From assembly GCA_036172245.1 (NCBI GenBank), contig JAYWIR010000024.1, positions 3,038,001-3,102,000 of the forward strand: DNA of 64,000 nucleotides, in the 5' to 3' direction. Positions 3,064-62,918 of the stretch are shown piece after piece. Origin of the DNA: Raillietiella orientalis (taxonomy: Eukaryota). The position numbers and the translations under genes are program-made. The notes beneath the pieces were generated by a model. That model was not told where the DNA came from, made no database searches, and saw only the letters and a list, made by a program, of their open reading frames with translations. The first letter of the stretch is position 1. Every line of letters starts with the position of its first letter.

Positions 3064-3728
3064 CGTCTGGCCGCCGCGTCTTAGAGTGGCGGCGGCAACC
3101 AACGAAGAGTTTTTTTGTTTTTGTTTTTGTTTTCCCGCTTTTTCTTTGCCTTTAGCTACGTGCGCGCAAGCGCGTTTCCTTCCTGTGATCTCTCTCGTAC
3201 GCCTGGGTCGTGACCAGGGTGGTGGTAGTGGTGATGATGCTAATGCTGAGGAGGCGGCGGTGGCGGCGGTGGAGGAGGAAGAGAGCACGAAAAGGGGGGA
3301 TGAGAGTTCGCCTTGCCTCATGCCGCCTCCGAGCCTCTTCCGCTCGCCGGCGGCGGCTCATCGGGAGAGAAGAAAGGGGAGATCCGCAGCCTCTCAACCT
3401 CGAAAACGCTCCCTCCTCTGCGCGGGTAACCCGGGCGGGCGGCGACCCGCGGAGGGACACTCTGAGGGTCTTGCCTCGGGCGCCCGTGAACGCCGCGCGC
3501 GGAGAGAGATGTGAAAGTTCGGACCCGCGGGTTGTGTGTGGTGGTGGTTGATCTCCCGGACGGCCTTTCGGAAAGCGTGACCAGGACGCGATTCTGTGCG
3601 GTGGCGAAGGCAGACGAGCTTGCCCGTCCCTGGCCTACCGGGACGGACGCATTACCAAGCTCTACGGGGGAAGGCGGGGAGGGAGGGTCGGGGAAGGGGG
3701 TTGTTGCGGTTGCCTGCTGCCGCCTGCC

Positions 3729-5079
3729 TTTTACACCCGGGTGTGCCGGGGCGTTTATTTTTTAGTAAAAACAAACAAGCAAGTGTAGGGCTATTGCCCC
3801 TACAGCGTCCTAAAAAAATGTTCTAATAAAGAGTCTGAAATTGCCGAGTAGCAAGCACGCAGGCTGGCGAGTTCGACTCGGCAGCGGGGGGGGGGGGGGG
3901 AAGGACAAATAAAAACAAAAAGAAAACACTATTTACAAAAGCAGGGAGGAGTTGGGGAAGGGATCAGATTCCGCTGGAGTCGTCCTCTACATCCTTTCCA
4001 GGATGCCGGCAAGTTCGGTCCGCATATGCCCCAAATGGGACCATCTGGCTGCCGTCCTTAGGAAACGTAGGGCGGAGCAGATGATGTCCCTGTCGTTCAG
4101 TCCACCAGTGGCGGTGCTCCAGGCCGCCACAATCCCTCGTAGGCAGCAGAGGGCTGCAAGGGTTGCTGCAGGCCGAAGGGCGTCACGCACAGAGGCGCGT
4201 CAGAACGTCTCTAGGGTTGATCGTGGGTGCTCCTAGGGCTGTTGCGAAACGCAACCACAGAGGCCGGAGGGCAACACAGTCAAGAAGCAGGTGCGGGAGG
4301 GTTTCTTGTTCCCCGCACCTGACGCAATTTGGGTCCACAGCCCCCCTCGTCCAGTGAGATCGGCGGGCGTTGCTCGGGAGTCCCCAGTGCAACACCAGGA
4401 ACGCCAACTCCTGCCACTTCAGGGGGAGGGCCCGGGTAGTCTTCAGCACCGGGGGCCACTCGAGTACATCCATGGGGATGCTCAGCAGCTCGCTCCAGCG
4501 CAATAGTCCTTTCGGTGGGGCACTTGGGGTCGCAGTCTGCTGGTCCGTGGTCCAACCACCTTGTTGTTCCTTCTCTCTTGTTTCTTCTCTCTTCTTGAGA
4601 TGCTACAACGGACCTGCCAATTGGCCGGCTGACTGCTGCCCAGGTGCTCCCTGAGGTAGGGCAGAGGCGCGGCAAGGGAGGTCCTCTCAGCCCACGCACT
4701 CGGGGCGGGCTGCACAACGATGTCCTGCAGCGAGCGGCTCTTGTGATAGGAGAGCAGCATTCGCTGCCGCAACTCCGGGCTCGCTTCCTCGATCTGGGCC
4801 CACGTGCGAAGGCTTTCCTGCAACCAGGAAGTACCGTTCGCGGGCCGACAGGAGATCCAGGTGTTCGTTCTGGTCAGCTTCGCCACTCGCCGAAGTGCCA
4901 GTCCGCAGTGGAACAGGTACCGGCGTTAGCGGCGCGCTAGGAAGGTAGACAGTCCCGCGCAGCCGCTGGCTCGCTGAACAAGGCGTCGTGCAGGCTCGCA
5001 CCAGCTGGTGCTCCAGAGTTTCGCTCTAGAGCTAGAGTCCTGAACTGCAGCTGCAGTTCCAGCCGCTCCAGCGTGAGGA
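3729..5079 (-). mobile_element. L1/Tx1-like LINE, 5'-truncated copy A (ORF2 C-terminus + 3'UTR)
   Basis: zf-RVT-like segment LPLKWQELAFLVLHWGLP...NCVRCGEQETLPHLLLDC. 13-bp TSD GCTGCCGCCTGCC at 3716-3728 and 5080-5092. Near-identical to 46556-47984. Confidence 0.92.
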
Positions 5080-5151
5080 GCTGCCGCCTGCCGGCGTGGC
5101 TTCCAAAGCTCCCTTTGGCCAGTCAACGGTGCGCGCCTATTTGTTGCCGCA

Positions 5152-17790: not shown

Positions 17791-18792
17791 TTCACGTCCT
17801 CCACTCTTTCACGGTCTCCCTTCGGTCATCTCAAGTGAAATTCCGATCGCTCGCAGCAACTCCTCTCTTTCCTATGCTAGAAGGCACATGTGGAAGCTGC
17901 CATCCTGAATTGCTGCTCCAAGTTTTCAACTGAAAAGTGATCTTCCCGATGAAAAGAGTGAGTCACCTAGTCAGCTTTGTCGTCTTGCGTGCTGTGGTCA
18001 GTGCTTTCTTTGATTTCGGTCCGGGTTAATCTTGCTATCTCATGAGTGCTGGTTTCAGTCATCAGGAAGGGTACCTGATACCAACTGACCGCGTCCCTAA
18101 GGACCTCGGAATGTGAGCGCTCCTGTCTTCAAAACTCCAGCGATTCCGGTGGTTGGAAAAGAAAGAGATGGAGCGGAGAACCCTTCCGTCTTGGGAGGCA
18201 CTTCCTTAGCGTCGAAAGAATCCTTCCGGCGATTGGTTGTGGCCCTAGGGCCCACGATTGGCGTACATCAGGAAGTTAAATTCTTAAAAAAAAAAAAAAA
18301 ACTGCTTGCAGACGAAGAGAAAGAAGGAATGTATTGGGATAATTAGTGATTCGAGTAGAGTGTTTAGTAGCGCTGGGTCGAACTCGGAGCTGGGGCTGCC
18401 ATATCAAAGAAACTAAAGCCATCGTCGAGATGAAAATCCTCTGCTGCTGCTTCGTGGATTTCTTTTTGGGAACTCATACACGTCTTCATCTCTTGGTGAG
18501 AATTTTTTTCAAGTGTTGTTTCAGGGAAATAAGCAGAAGACGAAGAAGAAAATTCCTCCTTTAGCGACTGTTCGGAGGGACGTTGCTTGCCTTCTGCACT
18601 TTCCCCTTGTATTCACCTTCAGGCTCCAATGAATGTGAGAGACCCTCTGGCTTCCTTCGCGCCAGAGTCTCTTCGCCACACGGACTCACCCGCTGGCTAG
18701 ACACGCAACTTTCGTGGGACCCATGGGCTCCAGACTGTTGCAGTGCCAAACTGTCCTTTCCTTTGTTTTTCAGTCCTCTTGTTATGGAGAGT

Positions 18793-18942
18793 GGCGGGCT
18801 GATCCCGGAGGTGCTGCAATACCCGGTCAGCCCGCGACAGGAGAGGAGCAAGCTCCAAGCATCCCGTCCACTTCCAAAAAGTAGTTTAATATACTGGCCA
18901 CCAGATGAGTGGCGAATTAGGTACTGAGCTGATAGGGACAGA
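18793..18942 (-). pseudogene. U2: U2 snRNA, 3' ~150 nt (5' ~38 nt absent; interrupted by Utopia element)
   Basis: Sense TCTGTCCCTATCAGCTCAGTACCTAATTCGCCACTCATCTGGTGGCCAGTATATTAAACTACTTTTTGGAAGTGGACGGGATGCTTGGAGCTTGCTCCTCTCCTGTCGCGGGCTGACCGGGTATTGCAGCACCTCCGGGATCAGCCCGCC. It has an Sm-like site, stem III (GGAGCTTGCTCC), and stem IV (GCGGGCTGA/TCAGCCCGC) with loop ATTGCAG. Stem IIa is degenerate. Confidence 0.92.
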
Positions 18943-19705
18943 TTTTATTTCACAGTTGTTACAACTCATGCTAAACATTGACCCTTGTGGCTCTACCCAA
19001 TCTCCCTATTCTCTCTTCTGTGTAACCATCCACTGTTTTTTTGCAGGGGGACTGTTGGCATCCACTCAACCTGAACTTCCAAGTGGTCCCTTTGGTTGCG
19101 AGCATCGCCGGAAGTGTGGTCCAGTTGGTATTCCGAGTACGCATCCCAGCCACATCGAATGGCGGAGAATACAGTTCTTTTTTTCATTTTCTCCTCATAT
19201 CTCCGTGGGATGCGCACCTAATGTAGAAGTCCACCATTCCTAGGATCCCAAGAGCCAAGTGTTCCTATTATAAATGCCTGGACATCGGTTTTGATGACCT
19301 CTTGGGAGAGAGATCCTGCCATGCCTTGGTACTTCTTTCTCCCTTCTGGAAGCTTTAAGTGCGTCTTCCCCATTTCCAAACGGGGATGCAACATCCGACA
19401 CTACTACTGTGTGGGTGCAGAGGGTTCGTTGTCTTGGAAGCCATCGTTCCTCATGGACTTCGGAGACCGGCGGCCCCTTGCGGTTTTTAGGGAAGGAGAA
19501 GTGCACAGTGCACGAGATCCGTCCTCTCACTCCACCTTCGCCCCCGGTGCACCTGAGACGATACACCTTCCGGGTCCTTATGGCGAGCAACGCCCTGAGA
19601 CGGCCCGGTCCGCTCGCCTATCCAACCGACCGAACCTCCCGCCTTTTTTCTTTTTGATCGGCACTTGAAGGACCTGTCCCCCTGACCCTACCACTTTCAC
19701 CCGCA
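18943..19705 (-). mobile_element. Utopia (NeSL-related, RLE-type) non-LTR retrotransposon, decayed 3' part
   Basis: Reconstruction across one frameshift and one stop: VVVSDVASPFGNGEDALKASRREK-KYQGMAGSLSQEVIKTDVQAFIIGTLGSWDPRNGGLLH*VRIPRRYEEKMKKRTVFSAIRCGWDAY, matching the RLE C-terminal motifs DVxxPFEN / KxxKY / IVGxLGSW. The 3' end AATAAAA is joined to U2. Confidence 0.88.
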
Positions 19706-21159
19706 TTCACTATGCTGGGAAGCTGAAGCAGCAGACAGCCAGCATCCCATCATCCAACTCACTGGAATGATATCTGTGGTACCCACTCCCTTTCCCACTC
19801 AACACTCCCATCCCGATTCCAATACGCACGTAGTAACATTTACTAGCACCTTCCACTAATTTTCCACGAAATTCTTGCCCTCCCATCACGTCATGGCCAC
19901 ATCACTGTGGCTTCATCTAGCATTTCCCAGCTCGTCCGCCATTTTGGAAGTTTATCCCGATTCCGTTTGCTCGCAGTTGGCTTCGTGTGCCTCGCGCAGC
20001 TTGCTTCAGAACCTTTTCTGTAGTGCCGTGGTAATAGCATCAGTAGATGAGCGATGGATTGGGTTCATCTGTTTTGCTGTTCGCTTTCAGCCTTTTTTTC
20101 GGGTTTCCTTTTTTTTTTGGTTCGCCAAGTACTGAAAGACCGTTCGCCTAGGGGGCAAGGAAGCTCTTTGACATTATCCACGCTACCCGGAGGTATACAT
20201 TACGCTTCAAGACAAGGGGTATCCCGGGAGGGGACCACCCTATGAATCCAGAAAGGTTCCGGAGGAAAGAGTTTGTTTCTCCTACGCTTGGTAAGGAATC
20301 CTCGCCCTGGTTGTCTCCGATTTCCACTCGGACACTCCAGGGCGTAGATGAGTCGTAGACAGTGGCACAGGTAGGCGTATGATGCCGGATGCTGGATTGA
20401 GTGGATGTCTTTTGCTAGTATCCACTAAGTGGTTGAGTCACACCAAGGACATGTGTGGTCCAGAACGCTCAGCATCCTGGTACAAACGAAGCCGAAACGA
20501 GCAGTGCAAAAGCTGGAACCTTTGACGATCGGCTCCGAGTCGCCACCCTAGGCGAGGGACGGTAGCTCCAAGCGGGCGAAAGTTACGCTTCCGCGCGACG
20601 TAGCCGGTGCTCCGTGGAAACGGTCATCTCGTGGGCCCGACTCACGCACGTCAGGCAGAGATGCACCACGAGTTCGACCGCCTGGCCATATGAGCGCGAA
20701 GCTCACTGACACTTGTCCATGCCGTCGCCTGTGGCCCGGAGCGTACCACCAGTGCAGAGCCTTGCTGTGGTTGATGCTGGAGCGCACCGCCGTCCTCTTC
20801 GTGTTTTCTGCCTGCATAAGGGGAGTCCCAAGTTCTGCGAGCGCTTCCTTCTTCCCTGAAACCCCATTCGATCATTCAGATGCTTGATCTCAACTGGCAA
20901 CTCAGGCAGCGAACAGCTTAACGGGAGAAGCGAGAAAGGGTCGTTTCTGGAGGTTTCCAAGCGAGCTCTCTCGGTGCGTAGGTGTTGCAGACAAACAAAG
21001 AAAGCGGAATTTTCTAAAAAAAAAAAAAACATGAAATTAACAAAGAAAGAGCAGAGAATAAAAAATGAATAAGCAAGGGAGGATAAATACTCGAAACATC
21101 TAAGAGGAGTGGATGTGCTGCAAAGATGAGATTTTCCTGCAAAGGAAGAATCTTGGAGA

Positions 21160-26542: not shown

Positions 26543-27938
26543 ACTCCTGAGAATCTCCCTGTGGGGTAGAGGAAGGCAGCGAGTCCTCTTGAAACACTTG
26601 TGCGCTATGCATCGCGACGGAGGCCTCGGCCCCGTGACGCTGGATCGCCTGGAGCGGTAGCTCCGGTGGTGGACACTTGCCCTAGTGACGAAGCTTTGGA
26701 GCAGGAACTGGCACGAGCCCGCACGCTGACTGGTCAAGCGAGCCACCGGCTACGCGGGACGGTCTTCGTTCTTGGAGCGGCGGCGCAGACCCAACGTGTC
26801 CAGCTGCAGACCGGAGCTCCGGCCACTGGCCGAGCTGACCAGGACCAACTACTGGGTCTTCTTTCAGACCGCGAGAGGTGGTTCCTGGTTGCAGGAAACC
26901 GTCCGAACATGGAAAACACAAAAACAACGAAGCGAGCCTGAGGCTGCGGCAGCGAATGCTGCACTCCTCCAACAAGAACCGCTTGCTGCAGGACGTCATC
27001 GTGCAGCCCGCCACGCGTGCGTGGGCGCAAAGAACCTCCCTTGTCGCGGCCCCGCCCTCCCTCAGGTAGCACCTGGGCAGTAACCAGACGGCCAAATGGA
27101 TGGTCAGTTGCGCAATAGACAATTGAACGAAGGAATTAGGTGGTTGTTCTTCGGGCCTGTTCACGGACGCTTCAATCCCAAGTGTCCCATCGAAGGGACC
27201 ATTGAGCTGGGACGAGCTGCTGGAAATCTCACAGGAAGACATGGAAGCTGGTCTCCGCCACACGCTGAAGAACAACCACACCCTCCCCCTGAATTGTCGG
27301 CATTTCTTTTGTTGCATGGGGATCTCTCGTGCAAGGTCCGCTGCTCTCACTGGACCCGGGGAGCGGCGGACCCAAACCGCTGCAGGTGCGGGGAACGGGA
27401 ATCGCTCCCGCATCTGCTTGTAGACTGTTTCCTTCAGGCACTTGTGATTGCCCTTGGTGCACCGGCCGACAATTCCAGGGACTTGATGAAGCGCCTCTTT
27501 GTGCGCGATGCCCATTCGCCCTCCGCATCTCCAGGAACTCTTTGCTGCCTACGTGGGATTGTGGGGCTACGCGAGAGGAGGACGAAATGAGAGGGACGCC
27601 ATCTGCTTCGCCCTGCGCTTCCCGCGGACGGCAACAAGATGGCCCTACCTGAGGCATACTCGGATGTAACTTGCGAGCATCCTGGAAAGAGTGCAGAGAA
27701 CGCCGTCCAGCGGACAGTGATGCTTTCCCTAACCCTCCCATTTTTTGGTATATATTTTTTTGTTTTATTTTTATTTTTGTTTGCTCCGTCCCCCTCTGCT
27801 GCCAAGGCGAATTTCGCCGGCCTGCGTGCAGGTTACTCTGCAGGTTCCGAACATTTTCAGACAATGTAAGGCCGATGACCCTATACATGTATGTTTATTT
27901 CTTTTTATAATAGAGGTTCCGACGTGACGGTGGTAAAC
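26543..27938 (+). mobile_element. L1/Tx1-like LINE 3' fragment, copy D (diverged)
   Basis: LRISLWGRGRQRVLLKHLCAMHRDGGLG ... HWTRGAADPNRCRCGERESLPHLLVDC. 3'UTR similar to copy H. Confidence 0.9.
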
Positions 27939-31049: not shown

Positions 31050-31895
31050 CCTCTAGCTGCCGCATGGCTGCGGTCTCCGCGCTTGTGGGGACCACGCGTT
31101 GAGGGTTTGAATCCCCACTTGGAGTTTCGACGCTGAGAAATGAGCACGTTCTCGTCTTCCCGCAGGGAGACGCTGGCTGGTCTGTAGACTCGCCTTGGAG
31201 GCAGCACTAATGGAAACCGGATGCCTTGGTTGGCCGGTCAGGATTGCAAGTTGACCCTCCGCGGTCCCTTCCAGGAATCAGGAAGTGCCAGTTGCCTTCA
31301 AGATTATCCGTCAGTTGTGAAGATGGAGCCGTCCACCCCCTCGTGTTCCATGGAGCTCTTTAATACCCTTCTCGAGGGGTCTCCTCTCCAGAGTGCAGGA
31401 CGCGCGCTGCTCCCTTCGGGGAGCAACTCTTCATACAAATTTGGAAGCGTCCCTTCACGGTCCTCTGCAGGGAGCGGAGCTTAACAAGGAGCGGTTCCCT
31501 TGCGGATACCCTCTATATAAGAGGAAATTCCAGGAGCAGATCCCTTGTGGTTACCCTTGGGAGGAGAAATGAGGAGTGGCTTCCTCCCTCCGAAGAACCC
31601 ACCCGGAGAGAAAAAGGAAGAGATCCCTTTCGGGGATTCCTATTAAGCGTAATAGGTACGGACTCCTTCCTCTGGAACCTAACTGGATTTGTAGGATGGT
31701 CCCTTCCTGGGGTACCTTCTCTAACTGGAAGAGTTAACGCGTACCCTCGGGTGGTGTGGACAATGTCAAAGAGCTTCGTGAGCCTCCGCTGAGGATGCGA
31801 ACGGTTCTTCAGCAATTGGAGAATAAAAAATAAAAGAAAACCAGAAAAGAAAAAATCTGGAAGGAAAGCAGCGAAAGCAGAGGAACCCCGAAAAA
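31050..31895 (+). mobile_element. tRNA-headed SINE-like repeat, copy S3 (most complete, ~850 bp)
   Basis: B box GGTTTGAATCC at 31104-31114. Body and A-rich 3' part (aaagaaaaaatctggaagg) are shared with copy S6. Confidence 0.78.
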
Positions 31896-35704: not shown

Positions 35705-36700
35705 CGAGGTGCATCGCAAAAGTAAGGGCGGATGGGATATAAAGAAAGAACAAATGAGAGAAGCAAAAATGCATTGGTGGTTCTAAACACATACATCCCC
35801 ATGTCAATTCTCTACGCAGTCACCATTTTTTTTTCTTCAAACACTTTCTCTCTTCCACTCCCCCTCACTTTCCTCGAACCGTTGAGCCACTTCTTGAGAT
35901 GCAGGAAGACGTGGTAGCCGCTGGGCACGAGATCAGGACTGGGTGATCAAAAAGTTCCCATTTGAATCTCTGAATGGTCTGGGATGTGCAGACACGGCAG
36001 TGTGTGGGACCAAAAGGGTGTGCTTTTGAAGGGTGGACTTTATGGAGCGTGGAGCAACCATCACTTCCCAAGTCCACCGTGAAACACTTTCCAAACTGCG
36101 GCTCTTAGTGGACTCTGGTATCCAGTAACCGCAGAGTGCCAGGGAACCACCTCCACCCTAAAACCAGATGTAGTTTTAGAGAAAAGCGATCGAATAGGTG
36201 TGCTGGACATCTCCTGCCTATTTGAAAACGGAAAGGAGGCGTTCACCACGTCTAGAAAAACAAAGGAGACCAGATACCATGATGCCTCCGTGCAACTTGG
36301 AAACACTGGGAAAACAACCAAAGTGCAGGCGATCCTTATCGGCCCACTTGGAGCATCGGATTCCGAAAACGAAAACGTTCTACGATACATAGGAATTCCG
36401 AAAAAGAAGCTGATAAGGATACGGCAGCGGAAGGTAGCCACCTGCATCCGCTTCTCAAGTAGCATCTATGCAACACATGTAAGAAGAAAAAATGCAGCCC
36501 AACCAGATGACCTGGACAATGCTCTCGCCCCGGAAGAGAACACTGAGGAACCGTGAAGAACACGGAGGAAACATCATTCGTGAAAGATTCTCCAGAGCCA
36601 TTCCAGCAATAGTTGTTGTAATAACCCCAATGCTCAATAAGTTTCCCTCATTTGTTCTTTCTTTATATCCCATCCCCCCTTACTTTTGACATGCGACTCG
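35705..36700 (-). mobile_element. Internally deleted mariner DNA transposon
   Basis: TA flanks at 35703-35704 and 36701-36702. ~54-bp TIRs CGAG....AAAAGTAAGGG.GGATGGGATATAAAGAAAGAACAAATGAG. Minus-strand transposase remnants TSQTIQRFKWELFDHP/SPDLVPSGYHVFLHLKKWLNG and C-terminal KCLKKKNGDCVEN* (stop 35804-35806). Confidence 0.93.
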
Positions 36701-43454: not shown

Positions 43455-44043
43455 TTGAGTGCTGCAGGAGCAGGAACGGGAATCCCTCCCACATCTGCTC
43501 GTAGACTGTTTCACATCCACCAGGAGGGTGCAGCTGATTACACTGACCGCCCCTGTGGTTGCCCTTGGTGCACCGACCGATAATCCCAGGGATGTGATGA
43601 AGCGTTTCTTCGTGCGCGAAGCCCCACGCATCCCCAGCAGCTCTTTTCTTCCTACATGGGATTGTGGAGCTACGCGATAGGAGGACAGCGCGATGGGGAC
43701 ACTATCTGCTTTGCCCTGCACTTCCTGCGGACGGCCGCAAGATGACCCCACCTGGGGCATACTCGGGTGGAGCTTGCCGTCATCCTGGGAAGATGATGTG
43801 GATGCCCTCCAGTGGACAGTGATCCCTTCCCTAACCCTCTGATTTTTTTGTATATATTTTTTTGTTTTATTCTTATTTTTGTTTGCCTCCTCCTCCCTCC
43901 TCTGCCGAGACGAAACTTGCCGGCCTGCGTGCCGGTTACTCGGCAGATTCCGAGCATTTACGGACAACGTGGGGCCGATGGCCTTATACATGTATGTTTA
44001 TTACTTTCAATAATAGACTTCCTGGCGTGATCGAGTGTTAACC
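43455..44043 (+). mobile_element. L1/Tx1-like LINE 3' fragment, copy H
   Basis: ERESLPHLLVDC...VALGAPTDNPRDVMKRFF. Probable TSD CACCCC(G/A)CAG at 43445-43454 and 44044-44053. Confidence 0.85.
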
Positions 44044-45347
44044 CACCCCACAGAAGGATAGCTTTCGTCTTTTGTCTTTGCTCGGCACCCCTTCTCTTCC
44101 GCCTCCGAGGAGCAGCTCGTCGACAATCCAGGAAGTCCAGAAAATTTCGGACTTTCGTTGTTGCATTCTCTGCATTCTTCTTTTTTTTCTTCAAATTCCT
44201 CCTGTGTTCCCTGTGAATTTGCAGCAGATGCCCAGCGTGACCTTATCATTCCGGACGGAAGGGTCGCCCGCTGGACGAGAAGGGATGAAATTTACACAGA
44301 TCGAGGAGAAGGACCGGCACGTCTAGACCAAAAGCCAAGGGAACTTCCCTTGCTTCAAACAGAACTGAATAGGCATGGAGAGAGAGTGGGGAGTACTGAG
44401 AAATAGGCGGGGATCGGGATGGATTGGTCTTACGGCGCTGTTCCGCGATCCCCTGCGATCGTGTAGGGAAGGGGCGGAAGGGTTATGCTCCCATGGTCAC
44501 CCGAGGGCTCCCCTTGTACCTCGCACCCGCCCACTTCAGCTCCCTTGGCATGCGGGCGGTAAAGATTGTGGACGGCTCTCGGGAAACCGCGGCCATGCCT
44601 TCCTCTGTTTCGGCGGTCAGCGTCGCCTGCACGTCGGCGAAGGGGCGGCCTGTTAATGCTGGGGAAGATGAGCGTTTCCTTCGAGCAGGTCTTGTGGGGA
44701 CCAGCGTTCGGGAAACCGAGGTGCCTCGACGATGCTCTTCCATCCCCTGGTGTGGAGGGAGGGTCTCCGCTAGCCCGCAGTGGAGGGAGGGCATTCCTTG
44801 GGCATTCTCCCCGCTAAGGCCTGTTGGAGTTCCTCGGTTCGGGGGAGGGCTCAGTGCCACCGGCGAGGTGGTGGCTGGTCTTCTGGTGGAGGCTTGTCGG
44901 AGAGACAGGAGGAGCACGCTGCCGACGCCATAGAGGAAGCCACTCAGGCGTGCTGCGAACCGCTGGCCGGCAAGCCCCAGGGGCTGCTCGGGAGTCCAAC
45001 CAGAGGACCACGGCCAAACGGGAGTGGACCATCCTTCTTCTTCGGCGTTAGAGGAGGCAACCTGGCTGGTGGTGGGGGATCCCAGGATCCGAAGAACGAA
45101 GACGAATGGATCGGAAGAATTGGTCCCGGTGAGCTGTACCTGCCGAGCGGCGGAAGATTCCTGAGCGGGGGAGAGGGTGGGAGTAGGTGCAGCCTCCCAG
45201 TGTTTCCAAGCAACCGCTCCCAAGCCCGGCTGCTCAACGGATCCAGCTCCCTTTATCTCTGCTCCTCGTTCCTCTTTCCATTCCCACGCCTCTTCTCTCG
45301 CGCCGTCTTCCTCAGAAGCCTCCGGTCGACAATCCCCTATAATGATA

Positions 45348-46028: not shown

Positions 46029-46555
46029 GCGGTATCTTCTGCGACGCATCTGCGTTGCCAGGATGGGCAGTCAGAATCCGGATCGATCCATCGATGTGAC
46101 CATGGCTTGTTCTTCGTGACCGGTCAAGGTGCTTCTTCCACATCCTTTGCTTGTTTTTGTAACATCGTAGAACACGTAATAGATCACAGATGCTGTCATT
46201 TGCTTCCCTCGGCACCTCTAATATCCACTCTGTTTCCGACCTTTCTTCGTTGTCACGAGGAGGCCGCAGGCCCTAAATAGTCCTTCGAATCCTTCGCACC
46301 TCAAGGTCATCCTCCCTAATAAACGCTGCTGTTGCCACCTGCTCGTCCATTTGAATCACTCTCGTGTTCGAAATTCGCGAAACCCCTGCTCACTTTCGGA
46401 GGTTGTGGAGAATGATCTGCTGGTTCTCGGTCCCCCATCGCCTTGGATCAAGATCGGAGCGAAAGGAGAAATCGCACCCCTTGCGCACACGCAAAAAAGC
46501 ACGAAGAAGAGGGTGGTGGTGTGTGCCGACATCCAGCGCACCTGCGACATTTGCT

Positions 46556-47984
46556 TTCACACCCGGGTGGGCCGGGAAGTTTATTTTTGTAAAAAAACAA
46601 ACAAGCATGTGTAGGACCATTGCCCCTACAGCGTTCGATAAAAAACTCTGAACTTGCAGAGTAGCCAGAGCGCAGGTCGGCGAGTTCGACTCGGCAGCGG
46701 AGGGGGAAAGGACAAATAAAAACAAAAAAAGAAAACACTATTTACAAAAGCAGGGAGGGGTTAGGGAAGGGATCAGATTCCGCTGGAGTCGTCCTCTACA
46801 TCCTTTCCAGGATGCCGGCAAGTTCGGTCCGAATACGTCCCAGATGGGACCATCCGTCTGTCGTTCTCAGGAAGCGCAGGGCGGAGCAGATGATGTCCCT
46901 GTCGTTCAGTCCACCAGTGGCGGTGCTCCAGGCCGCCACAATCCCTCGTAGGCAGCAGAGGGCTGCAAGGGCTGCTGCAGGCCGAAGGGCGCCATGCACA
47001 GAGGCGCGTCAGAACGTCTCTAGGGTTGATCATGGGTGCTCCTAGGGCCGTTGCGAAACGCAACCACAGAGGCCGGAGGGCAACACAGTCAAGAAGCAGG
47101 TGCGGGAGGGTTTCCCGTTCCCCGCACCTGACACAATTTGGGTCCACAGCCCCCCTCGTCCAGTGAGATCGGCAGGCGTTGCTGGGGAGTCCCCAGTGCA
47201 ACACCAGGAACGCCGACTCCTGCCACTTCAGGGGGAGGGCCCGGGTAGTCTTCAGCACCGGGGGCCACTCGAGTACATCCATGGGGATGCTCAGCAGCTC
47301 GCTCCAGCGCAATAGTCCTTTCGGTGGGGCACTTGGGGTCGCAGTCTGCTGGTCCGTGGTCCAACCACCTTGTTGTTCCTTCTCTCTTGTTTCTTCTCTC
47401 TTCTTGAGATGCTACAACGGACCTGCCAATTGGCCGGCTGACTGCTGCCCAGGTGCTCCCTGAGGTAGGGCAGAGGCGCGGCAAGGGAGGTCCTCTCAGC
47501 CCACGCACTCGGGGTGGGCTGCACGATGAGGTCCTGAAGCGAGCGGCTGTTGTAAAAGGAGTGCAGCAGTCGCTGCCGCAACTCCGGGCTCGCTTCCTCG
47601 ATCTGGGCCCACGTGCGAAGGCTTTCCTGCAACCAGGAAGTACCGTTCGCGGGCCGACAGGAGATCGAGGTGTTCGTTCTGGTCAGCTTCGCCACTCGCC
47701 GAAGTGCCAGTCCGCAGTGGAACAGGTACCGGCGTTAGCGGCGCGCTAGGAAGGTAGACAGTCCCGCGCAGCCGCTGGCTCGCTGAACAAGGCGTCGTGC
47801 AGGCTCGCACCAGCTGGTGCTCCACAACTGCGCCACTGGGGCTAGCGTCCTGAACTGCAGCTTCAGTTCCAGCCGCTCCAGCGGGAGGAGGCCGAGGCCT
47901 CCCTCGAGACGCGGAGCACACAAGTCCTTCAGGTGGACTCGGGGCCTCCCTCTGCCCCAAAGGGCGATCCTCAGGAGGTCCTTC
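46556..47984 (-). mobile_element. L1/Tx1-like LINE, 5'-truncated copy I
   Basis: LRIALWGRGRPRVHLKDLCAPRLEGGLGLL ... NCVRCGERETLPHLLLDC. 12-bp TSD GCGACATTTGCT at 46544-46555 and 47985-47996. Confidence 0.93.
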
Positions 47985-52264: not shown

Positions 52265-53939
52265 GTGTCCCTTGTTCTTTTCTTCATTGGGATGAGCTGC
52301 ATCCCCGAATGCGATTTGGAAGTACAAGAAGGGGAGGGAGAGGGGAATAAAAGCAAAGGGGTGAAGGTGCCCTTTTACCCAGGGTCCTCACGTTGTTCCT
52401 TCCCCAAAGTTTCTCCTGACGACGGGTGTGACTCTGGTCCCGATTCTAACGCATAATTCTTTCGTCTTTTACTAAAGAATTCCGTAAACAGGGACTTCTA
52501 AATGAGTCTTTAGACACTCGAAACCGAGAAGCAACAACCCTGCCCAGCTAATCAAGGTCTACCAGAGCACTCGGGGAAGAAGAAAGGGAGGAGGAAAAGA
52601 GAGGAATCGCCCTAGGCGTTCCATGGAAAAGGACTCGAACTCACCGATAGGTGGACTCTCCAACTGCCTCCTCCTTCCTTTCACCAGATTGTGAGGAAGG
52701 CGTTGGTCCACGTCCAGCTTCTCTTGAGCCTCCAGCTTGCGCCATCTTCTCGGTTCGGACCCCGTCGTCTGTCTCTGTCTTCTAGAAGGTTGTCCCGGGA
52801 AGCCAAAGGAAGCGTCCAGTGAACTGAGAGCGCCTGATGACCCTCACCTTCGTCGCCAGCTACCGCTCTTGGGCCGAACGCCCCCGCTCTTCCTCCCCTC
52901 TCTTTTCCTTCTGCTCTCCCCAGGGGCGGAGGACCCTGCTCTCGCACCCTCCTCTTTGGGAGGAGAGTCTCCCCACGTCGAGGAGGTGGGATCGTTCCCG
53001 AGCTTCTCCTCTGGCCCTTAGGGTCCATGGTCCGGAGGAGGAGGAAGATGCACTGATCACCTTGCCTTCCATTGTTTGTCCGATCCTGGCCCTGAATCTT
53101 CTTTAGAGGGCCGCTGCCTTGACCACCGGAGGCCTTCTGCACTTCGGCTCTTCTTCCTCTTTGTCGTCCCGAGGCTTTCGCTGGCGCCCCTGAAGATCCC
53201 GGACTACCGAAGAACAGAGAGGAATCGCCACTCTTCTTAAGTTGGGGTCCCGTCCGCTCTTTCTCGAAAGTTCGCGGAATCTGGTCCGGTTCTAGGGAGA
53301 GCCATGAGAACTTCCTAAAAATCCCGCTGGCAGTCCGGTTGGATAGGGACGGCGTGACTGGTGACCTCAGGAGCTGATGTGTCTCCAAGGATCCAGGCCA
53401 AAACGGCTCCGGGCCGGACCTTCCAGAATAAGAAGGGGAGGGTGGCGAGCAGATACGCAAGGGAACTGGGGTACTGCGAGCCTATTCGGGAGAGGTGCCG
53501 CGGCAGTTCGCTCCGCATGAGCCTGTGCGCACAACAGGTTCCTGCAGGACGTCGAAGCAACAGCCCTTCCTCTTCTTCCACCTCCTCCCTTCCCGAGGCT
53601 GCGGTCGCTCCGTGCACCTCGGTGGCGTTCAGCGGGGACTCCGGGCTGCCGACAGGAACCGGGAAGACGAAACCCACAAGGCGTTGGCGCCGGTTGGCCC
53701 AGGGGCTTCAGGTGCGGCACTGGCGGGACGCGCGTGAGCTTTGGGAACCGTCTGCTGCGTTGACAGGCTGGCATCGGAAGTCGGCCTTCCGAGGGCTTTC
53801 CGGGAATCATGTAGGCATCTCCTTTCGAGTCTCTCGGGTCCTCGCTTCCTCTCCTTCCCCCCAATCGCGCAAACGCAGCCGCCCACGGGCTTCGAGTGTC
53901 GAAAGTTGTCCGCTTCTGACGCTCTGGGGAGGGTAAAGG

Positions 53940-60196: not shown

Positions 60197-62918
60197 CGCC
60201 CTCAACGCCACGCAGGAGGAGGAGGCCGAGCCGCAAAGAAGTCCCCTTCTGGTGAACCTGTCGGTGTTCTTCCTGAACGTGCACAAAGTCGATGCTCAGA
60301 CAGGCGTGAGTGCTGGGGTGCGCCTGCGGAACGCGCACATCCCGGTGGGTTCCCCCAGACCATCTCCATCAGCGCCTTCTTCCGCATGAAATGGAACCAC
60401 ACAGAAGCGCAGGAGATTTTCCCCGAGGTCAACTCGCCCGCGAGAGCGCCGCTGACGGCCAAGCGCTGGCAGCCCGACCTCTTCATCCTGGAAGACGTGC
60501 ACGACAGAGCGATCGGCTCGTATTCCAGCAACTTCTTCGCCCGCGTCGAAAATGAGACGGTCGTGACCAGCAACAAGTAAGCGACTCCCTTCGCTCCCCG
60601 GTCAGGGGTCCTCCGAGGAACTGGACCTTCCTCGACGGAGCTGCGGACGATCCCTTCCGGTTTCCAGATCTCAGACTTGCTTCTGTTCTTATTGGCGGTC
60701 ACACTGAGCTTCCGAAGAACAGCCCCCTGCGACCTCTTCCATGAGTGACATGTGACCTCTTGCTAAGCTTAAGTGACCTCCTTACAGAGGTGGAAATTGC
60801 ATTGCTGGAGGGGCGGCAAATGACCCGACAAAAACCCCTCCTCTGCTTCCTACTGTTCTTGTCCAGCCTTGCCCGGCATCTCAACCTCTTAGTCCCTTGT
60901 CCCTATTCTTAGGGATCCTCCCTTCCTCCCCCTTTCGTCCTCTTCCCTTCCCCTTCTCCCTTCCTCCTCCTCCCTCCCTCTACCGTTCTCGGATTCCTGT
61001 GTTCTTGCCCAACCTTGCACGGCACCTCCACCCCTTAGTCCCTGGGTCACTTTTCTTCGGGCTCCGCACGCCCGCTTTCTGCCCCATTCGATCCGCACGC
61101 GGTTGCCGTGGGAACATCTCCGGATGCGATCCGATGCTGCAGGCGAGCACCCGCGATGCAGCGATGATTTTGGCGAACTTCTGGAGGACTTCGCGGACGT
61201 CGTCGCCCATTCCACATTTCGGACCTCCTTCCCCCAAGAGGAGGAACCCGTAAGTGCTGGACGGGGACCATGGAGCGTTTTGGCCCTTCGGTGCGACGAA
61301 CGTCACTCTGCGCGCGGTAAGGGCCCATCCCAAGAGAGTTCCCTCGCCCCGGAAGTGTCTCTATGGCAACCAGCTCTTTTCTCCTCGGGTTCCAGGGGCC
61401 GCGAAGGGAGTCTTCACCGGGGATGTCACAGCTCATTTCCGTGTATGGAAGACAGCGTCCCTCCTCCTCCTCCTCATCTTCCTCCCTTCCCCTTCTTCGC
61501 TTCTTCTCCTTCCTCCTCCTTCTCCTTCTTCCCTCTCTTCAACCACCACCATCATCATCCCCTTCATCCTCATCCTCTCTACCCCTCCTAGTTTCCCCGT
61601 CTACGGTGGCGTCTCTCGCAGTACGCAACCACTGTCGTGCCGTGGCCTAGAGTAAGGACGAGCCCGGAGGGCCGCAGCTTCTGCGTCCCTCGGGAAAGAC
61701 CCCGTCAGGAGGAAGAGGGAGGGTGGCCCCTGCGGTCTCCCACGGGAATGGCTCGTCCCCGCGCGAGGAAGCTCCTGTGCTCTTTCTTCTGCCCGAGGGA
61801 GCGGAGGAGCAGATTGGCGGCGCTAGGCTTCCGGGTCTCCACTGAGGGGAGGCAACGAGGTCCTCTCTACCGTTGCCTTCCGTCCCGCTCGTTCCGCTCT
61901 CTGGCGTTTCCGCGTCCGGCGACCACCTGCACTTTAAAAGCCTCCTCCTTTCACATGCATCCTTCGATGTGGTTCCAGGATCTCCCCTGTGGTGTTCTGC
62001 AGCATGGACTTCCGCAACTTTCCCTTCGACGACCAGCGGTGCATCCTGAACATCGAAAGCTGTGAGTCATCATCGGGTCCGCGCCGCAGCGCACGTCTTC
62101 GCGGCTGGCGGGAGCAACGCCGGTCGTCCGTGAAGGCGGAGGCGTGGAAAAGGGAAGGGAGGGGAGAAGCCCCGCGGGTTTGCGGACCTTCCCTTCTCGG
62201 AGGCACGAGCGGGAAAGAACGCGCGGAAGAGGGCGGAGCAGGAGGGATCGGGGGAAGAAGAAAGGAATGTCTTGGTGGCGACTGCCGAGACGAGCTTGCA
62301 CTTGCGCGCGCAGCAAGATGGCCGCGCCTTCGGGGAGAACTCGGAGGACGAATCCGGGGCACTTCCTCATCTGCAGCTTCTCGCGGAGGGGATGAGCAGC
62401 AACAGCAAAAGAAAGAAAGAAAGAAAAGCGCCTACTCCTCCCTTGGTCGGTGCTGCCACTTTCGTTTTTCCTCCAGTTCCTTCGTCCCCCGCGAGAGGCT
62501 GCAAGCGCTGCGAGAATTTCCGGAAGAACCCACGGCGCAGCGGCGGGCAGGGCTGACTCTGGACAGGTCGCATAGCGCTAGTCCGTCCCGGCGAGCCAGC
62601 CACGATCTGTGCCAGCGTCCTGGGAGGGTAGGTGGGTCCTCTGGTCAACCGTTTTTCTGCGCAACGAGGGGAAACGGGGACAGACGCGCCTCCAACTGGG
62701 AACTGCGCCTGCGCCTGCGCTTAATCACGACCTTCCCTGCCCGAGTGCGCATCCTGACCCCCTATTTCTCTTCCTTCTCCTTCCAAATGGAGATGGCAGG
62801 ACCGCTGATAGGATGCTTCTGAACTGGGAGAACTCCAGCCAGTCCGACCTGGTGGGCTCCGCCTCCGCAGCCGGATTTACGCTGTCCGTCACCAGCCTGG
62901 AAGTGACTGTCTCAGGAA
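60197..62918 (+). CDS. Cys-loop pentameric ligand-gated ion channel subunit, extracellular-domain exons (60197-60305, 60359-60576, 61979-62061, 62793-62918); partial
   Basis: Phase-compatible GT-AG splicing gives PLLVNLSVFFLNVHKVDAQTG-TISISAFFRMKWNH...RWQPDLFILED...VVTSN-K-ISPVVFCSMDFRNFPFDDQRCILNIES-Y-GRTADRMLLNW...GFTLSVTSLEVTVSG. It contains the C-x13-C loop with FPFD, loop A WxPD and loop B ESYG. First exon and TM exons not identified. Confidence 0.93.
61460..61590. repeat. Pyrimidine-rich (CCT/CTT/CAT) low-complexity tract in the channel intron
   Basis: ctcctcctcctcctcatcttcctcccttccccttcttcg... Confidence 0.8.

Follow-up and report, generated by a model that had tools for sequence, protein, structure and literature searches.

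RLE elements nick their target and prime reverse transcription on their own RNA, and R2, an RLE element of 28S rDNA, is co-transcribed with its host gene. The closest described system for the locus studied here is Utopia, a group of NeSL-clade RLE non-LTR retrotransposons that insert into U2 snRNA genes directly downstream of GTAGTA (Kojima and Jurka 2015, PMC4640811). The same U2 site is used by Keno, which belongs to the Tx1 clade and carries an APE endonuclease (PMC4640811). In the parts of that paper covered here, insertions outside U2 are ascribed to weakened specificity and no read-through carry-over is proposed. An origin of R2 from Utopia or a common ancestor has also been proposed (Hassan et al. 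PMC13188248; 2026 review PMC13580325). As far as the covered parts of these two sources go, the Utopias of Porifera are not in 28S, and how RLE elements switch targets and how R2 reached 28S is an open question, with Utopia as a possible precursor.

Our locus lies in the window, by which we mean the whole 64,000-nt stretch of Raillietiella orientalis DNA that was analysed (contig C24, 3038001-3102000). On the minus strand, the sequence ...GAAATAAAA|TCTGTCCCTATCAG joins an element tail, AATAAAA (18949-18943), to U2 sequence starting at 18942. This is the published Utopia 3′ junction, in which TCTGTTCTT follows GTAGTA (PMC4640811 S1 Fig). The Rfam U2 model (RF00004) matches 18974-18789 with 76.8 bits (gathering 46; E 2e-13), the alignment being good only from 18942 on, which together with the minus-strand letters confirms the original prediction that the tail abuts U2 directly after GTAGTA. 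The U2 part (18789-18942, minus strand) extends from the base after GTAGTA through the U2 3′ end; it matches the U2 gene on contig C389, described below, at 136 of 154 bases, and the 5′ 39 nt are missing. It continues into about 30-45 nt of U2 3′ flank common to other loci (18748-18788, minus strand), after which similarity stops (blastn matches end at 18748-18773).

On the other side of the junction, the last codons of the element and its 3′ UTR ending in AATAAAA occupy 18943-19142 (minus strand; alignment to the L001 family and DNA profile). The C-terminal half of the RLE of a 5′-truncated Utopia occupies 19143-19416 (minus strand), as identified by protein and DNA profiles and by tblastn to the Utopia-like ORF of L037, a near-complete relative (E 1e-12, in two frames). 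This peptide remnant corresponds to positions 729-816 of the 820 in a Utopia-like protein profile. It keeps the second D, K..KY, and G.LG.W motifs of the RLE; the zinc knuckle and the PD half of the active site are absent, and the coding remnant is broken by a 5-nt deletion that shifts the frame near 19341 and by the TAG at 19220-19218. A DNA profile made from 19 other copies matches the window at 19412-18943 only (E 5.6e-49) and the protein profile is blank over 19420-19900, so 19413-19705 is not detectably element. The element, originally drawn to 19705, is therefore about 290 bp shorter, its homology ending at approximately 19412. Among the families found, the nearest to the window copy is the L001 family, 68% identical over 18765-19412, and this divergence, together with that of the U2 part, indicates that the copy is old and dead. 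Judged by its sequence, the window feature is a dead, decayed, 5′-truncated Utopia copy. Taken alone it is a decayed member of a known family, and its relatives matter more. Around it, no target-site duplication above chance was detected, no U2 promoter or U2 5′ part was found within 7 kb upstream, and a U2 leader scored 22, the same as the opposite-strand control.

Utopia families in this genome were shown to insert into real U2 genes after nt 37-39. On contig C389, where both junctions are visible, the order is upstream flank with promoter, U2 nt 1 to 37, short duplication, truncated element, and U2 from nt 40 to the end. A search with this promoter matched only C389, C482, and C30 (40 scored of 276 candidates); the U2 promoters match each other at 92%, and all four promoter-bearing U2 5′ pieces examined (C389, C482, and two on C30) are interrupted at nt 33-37. 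An uninterrupted U2 gene was found neither by the Rfam search (46 matches; 47 of 5640 candidates scored, 30 loci retrieved) nor by three pattern searches and the promoter search, which is likely explained by a collapsed array.

The junction seen in the window recurs at many loci. A U2 pattern beginning at the junction base occurs 63 times on 33 contigs, compared to two occurrences for the reversed control. From these and the 46 Rfam matches, we drew 51 unique U2-3′ loci, most of them viewed only 1.5 kb upstream. An AATAAA-like tail lies within 12 nt before U2 in 42 of the 51, against a 7% background for the loose motif, and the element-U2 junction is not due to chance. The element profile matched at the junction in 27 of the 51 loci, and in 14 of the 36 that lay outside profile building. 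By either test (tail or profile), 43 loci are element-type. The original prediction had pointed to other U2 loci for the same junction and for a full-length ORF: the junction was indeed found there, and the longest U2-flanked copy among those retrieved (L037) contains five stops. In six loci (L007, L009, L013, L014, L017, and L024), a second, diverged junction of element and U2 is found about 110 nt beyond the end of U2, facing the first one. Copies of this convergent two-junction unit occur on several contigs, with differing element tails in front of them.

We consider it probable that the window copy arose by reverse transcription of an RNA that reads through an interrupted U2 gene, and it probably lies outside any U2 gene. 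A Utopia-interrupted U2 gene would be transcribed from the U2 promoter, yielding an RNA that begins with U2 nt 1, spans the element, and extends over the 3′ half of U2 and its flank, and the Utopia endonuclease and RT would copy this RNA into other, U2-like sites by target-primed reverse transcription. Priming would start at variable points of the U2-derived trailer, giving dispersed copies with variable trailers; complete copying would keep the U2 leader, and incomplete copying would leave none. For the window copy, reverse transcription would have started about 40 nt past the U2 end and stopped after about 470 nt of element, with later decay.

The ends of the dispersed copies bear on this model. 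In the 43 element-type loci, U2 trailers range from 19 to over 190 nt and are cut at scattered points, being shorter than 150 nt in 19 loci (shortest 19) and at least 150 nt in 24. Trailers of 20 nt are also present at published aphid and beetle junctions (PMC4640811 S1 Fig), so the trailer pattern is not unique to this host. The C389 promoter is found upstream on the same strand in one of the 51 loci, and none of 17 upstream flanks matches U2 promoters, several of these 17 boundaries being still inside element sequence. Four promoter-less copies (L093, L096, L097, and L103) start with the first ~35 nt of U2. L178, which has no promoter, and C482/L150, which has one, are similar from exactly U2 nt 1 onwards, over U2 1-37 and another 220 nt or so of 5′ UTR, and L178 runs on into a Utopia RT. 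L092 consists of a U2 leader and element flanked by a 10-bp duplication resembling the U2 target. At the other end, 3′ flanks are common over 31-267 nt to copies with different tails. This genome-wide pattern of carried-along U2, together with the lack of an upstream promoter or U2 5′ part within 7 kb, makes it doubtful that the window copy sits at its U2 target site, as had been claimed. Several points speak against read-through. Duplications are missing at the window copy and at most other copies: a target-site duplication score of at least 12 was reached in 2 of 60 short loci, and a clean duplication is missing in four of the five leader-bearing units, L103 showing a 12-bp repeat 26 bp away. 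Moreover, the short U2 flank in the window could be the conserved 3′ processing box of a real gene, old U2 promoters may have diverged beyond recognition, and the U2 leader could have been added by template switching to U2 snRNA instead of co-transcription.

An insertion into a real, dispersed U2 gene at this very place, with the promoter and U2 nt 1-39 being lost either during integration or afterwards, appears unlikely to us. Such an insertion agrees with a window U2 in which nothing is missing between the target base and the U2 end and which continues into flank, with the lack of a duplication around the unit, with the 29 bp deleted upstream by the sister rDNA family (see below), and with the disrupted U2 genes of Phytophthora, which all lack nt 1-38 and point to integration deleting upstream U2 (PMC4640811). 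It is, however, at odds with the absence of any promoter trace within 7 kb, with promoter matches limited to C389, C482, and C30 among the 40 scored of 276 candidates, and with the scattered points at which U2 is cut short in 19 of 43 element-type loci. Copying of a piece of an interrupted U2 gene as DNA, by segmental duplication, repair, or capture by a DNA element, is improbable. The start of the promoter-less copies coincides with the cap site, U2 nt 1, or lies no more than a few bases from it, as expected if they are RNA-derived, and copies with a common downstream unit have different element tails, although the window unit shows no duplication at its ends and the convergent two-junction unit recurs at about six loci.

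Were Utopia expressed from the U2 promoter and its leaders and trailers scattered in this way, being flanked by U2 would not amount to being inserted in a U2 gene, and U2 carry-over would alter genome-based counts of both Utopia target strictness and U2 gene numbers. No paper on such carry-over was found in the literature searched, which lay outside Repbase, and a prior description is possible.

Promoter-less U2 1-37 pieces are numerous genome-wide (276 candidates; L051-L080, L153-L177). Some have 10-15 bp duplications, and L053 and L055 contain fold-back U2 sequence. Duplications scoring at least 9 were found at 7 of 29 and 5 of 26 pieces (overlapping sets), compared to 1.2% and 0.3% in controls. 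The idea that these pieces are mostly element 5′ ends was rejected, since a Utopia RT lies within 7 kb in only 2 of 18 (85 bits at L178 and 40 bits at L182). In their abundance, lack of promoter, and occasional short duplications, the pieces resemble the tailless U2 retropseudogenes that L1-type elements make in mammals, as described in the covered parts of PMC5322556 and PMC4494074, but they differ in ending at the Utopia site. Utopia is only one candidate maker of these tailless copies, the makers in mammals being L1-type and Tx1/L1-like remnants being present here.

The relatives also clarify what kind of element this is. Zinc fingers, RT, knuckle, and RLE parts are seen across them (the zinc-knuckle motif was read by eye, and L083 is split over two frames), and the full RPD..D..K..KY motif is present in L037, L081, and L083. 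We built a FastTree tree of 65 rows and, by a shortened search, an IQ-TREE tree of 28 of those plus one added sequence, a set without Repbase-labelled Utopia, NeSL, R5, HERO, and R2 references and with no LIN protein. In the IQ-TREE tree, the 17 sequences from this genome group in a single clade (UFBoot 100). Its sister group (UFBoot 99) consists of proteins from tick, aphid, spider, and crayfish along with L135, which comes from a metagenome, has an ORF of 1203 aa, and shows the U2 junction seen here. The window copy falls inside the Utopia-like clade, its exact position there being weakly supported (91 aa). On sequence grounds, we are highly confident that the window element is a member of Utopia. 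The original identification is supported: the endonuclease is of RLE type, the U2 site is exactly the published one, the tree places the element beside L135 and arthropod proteins, and U2 also flanks many other copies; the peptide did not group with a non-Utopia RLE clade. That the element is instead Keno, or an unrelated RLE clade adjoining U2 by chance, is extremely improbable: Keno does share the U2 site (PMC4640811) and Tx1/L1-like remnants are common in the window, but the window peptide is an RLE C-terminus, which speaks against Keno with its APE endonuclease, and it lies inside the Utopia-like clade.

Compared to Utopia as described in the covered parts of PMC4640811, the elements of this genome show 1) the RLE type, 2) in long relatives, the parts of a zinc fingers-RT-knuckle-RLE layout, 3) the U2 3′ junction, 4) an arthropod-type AATAAA tail, 5) several coexisting families, and 6) disrupted U2 outnumbering intact U2. 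They differ in that most copies are promoter-less and dispersed over 33 contigs, some with U2 leaders. A search of the 210-Mb assembly for the RLE C-terminus gave 1897 rough candidates, of which the 150 scored show 34-79% identity, the self match aside, indicating that the radiation is large and diverse. Numerous RLE copies among the relatives have no flanking U2, and the window itself contains a second RLE remnant (36116-36466, plus strand; tblastn E 9e-19) that groups with family L099/L100 and has no U2 after it. A metagenome scan with P0005 gave no match.

Within this clade, we found a lineage in 28S rDNA. L081 and L083 are followed by antisense 28S, and the exact junction is present at seven places in the genome. 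This antisense-28S Utopia-clade family comprises L081:1775-4664, L083:1875-7288, L088:1-1436, and L136-L142 (contigs C81, C83, C72, C33, C249, and C391). In L081, RT and RLE motifs lie in an open frame of 924 codons. L081 matches tick and aphid proteins with an E of 1e-195, compared to 1e-65 for solved R2 proteins. The junction lies 16 nt upstream of the R2 site with the element antisense; at the 5′ junctions of L083 and L088, exactly 29 bp are gone, the R2 site among them. When read antisense, the deleted 29 bases align gap-free to U2 nt 11-39, keep the register set by the junction, and agree at 18 of 29 positions. No other of the 9116 rDNA windows scores as high (next 16, mean 7.1), in a scan that covered the 28S-containing sequence at hand rather than the whole rDNA unit. 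The 28S target is also alone at the top for 24- and 39-nt windows and tied among six for 20 nt. The stretch common to U2 and antisense 28S includes TTTGGCTA at -24 to -17, and little similarity is seen downstream of the junction.

The 28S families sit in a clade (UFBoot 100) whose deepest branch is the L178/C482 family, with the C389 U2 insertion inside. Like R2, the 28S lineage is of RLE type and uses the same 28S stretch. R2 lies sense at TTAAGG|TAGC of 28S, whereas the lineage found here is antisense, has its junction 16 nt farther upstream, and in L083 and L088 has lost the R2 site from the target. No canonical R2 junction was seen among four matches in the poorly assembled rDNA, and Pfam detected no Myb domain in L081 or L083 at E 0.05, a weak test. 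R2 of fish deletes target, and the covered part of PMC5035012 mentions no antisense-28S family of this kind. The planarian R5/LIN elements (LIN9, LIN24, and LIN26) are likewise NeSL-clade and antisense in 28S, but LIN24 and LIN26 lie about 73 nt from the 28S site found here, LIN9 lies elsewhere, and their tails are T-rich (PMC4640811 S6 Fig); in addition, the family found here nests among U2-inserting families. In the literature searched, which excluded Repbase and the Fell et al. inventory, Utopia was not found described at this 28S site, and a prior description is possible.

Overall, we lean towards a scenario in which a Utopia lineage retargeted from U2 to 28S through antisense mimicry of U2 nt 11-39, deleting the R2 site, and in which Utopia, driven by the U2 promoter, spreads leaders and trailers of U2. 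The proposed switch would have been possible because U2 nt 11-39 are mimicked, in register with the nick, by the antisense strand of the region that R2 targets, and since the 28S lineage still holds U2-inserting families, it would be a natural snapshot of retargeting. If true, this shows concretely how a Utopia-like ancestor could have come to the R2 region. A clade with both U2-inserting and antisense-28S families, which have an in-register upstream motif in common, makes the question of target switching testable with natural proteins, and it bears on RT-endonuclease tools for gene insertion.

Further rDNA-clade families (L082, L084, L086, L090, L091, L085, L087, and L088) show long repeated 3′ UTRs, tandem self-insertion, or a GC-rich flank resembling rDNA spacer. 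By eye, L145 and L147 seem to be related 5′ ends joined at a nearer point, and L090 and L091 show, downstream of the element end (near 1970-1990), a likeness to a replication gene of circular single-stranded DNA viruses.

Elsewhere in the window, 3′ ends of Tx1/L1-like elements are repeated (3728-5080, 26544-27904, 43461-44045, 46554-47977, and others), with a weak zf-RVT match, and two of them are 93% identical. A short dispersed repeat at 20061-20345 is also present at 31631-31888 and at many other loci. A U5 snRNA match (52429-52519, plus strand; 53.6 bits) seems to be without Sm site and 3′ stem and is possibly a tailless retrocopy. At 61980-62063 (plus strand), a stretch of exon size matches PF02931, a domain of ligand-gated ion channels (E 4e-6). 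Finally, an RPC1 exon, which lends no support to a nematode host and points to an animal, probably an arthropod, lacking close relatives in the protein database, has its best match there in a cricket (77% identical), and arthropods lead the full-length matches.
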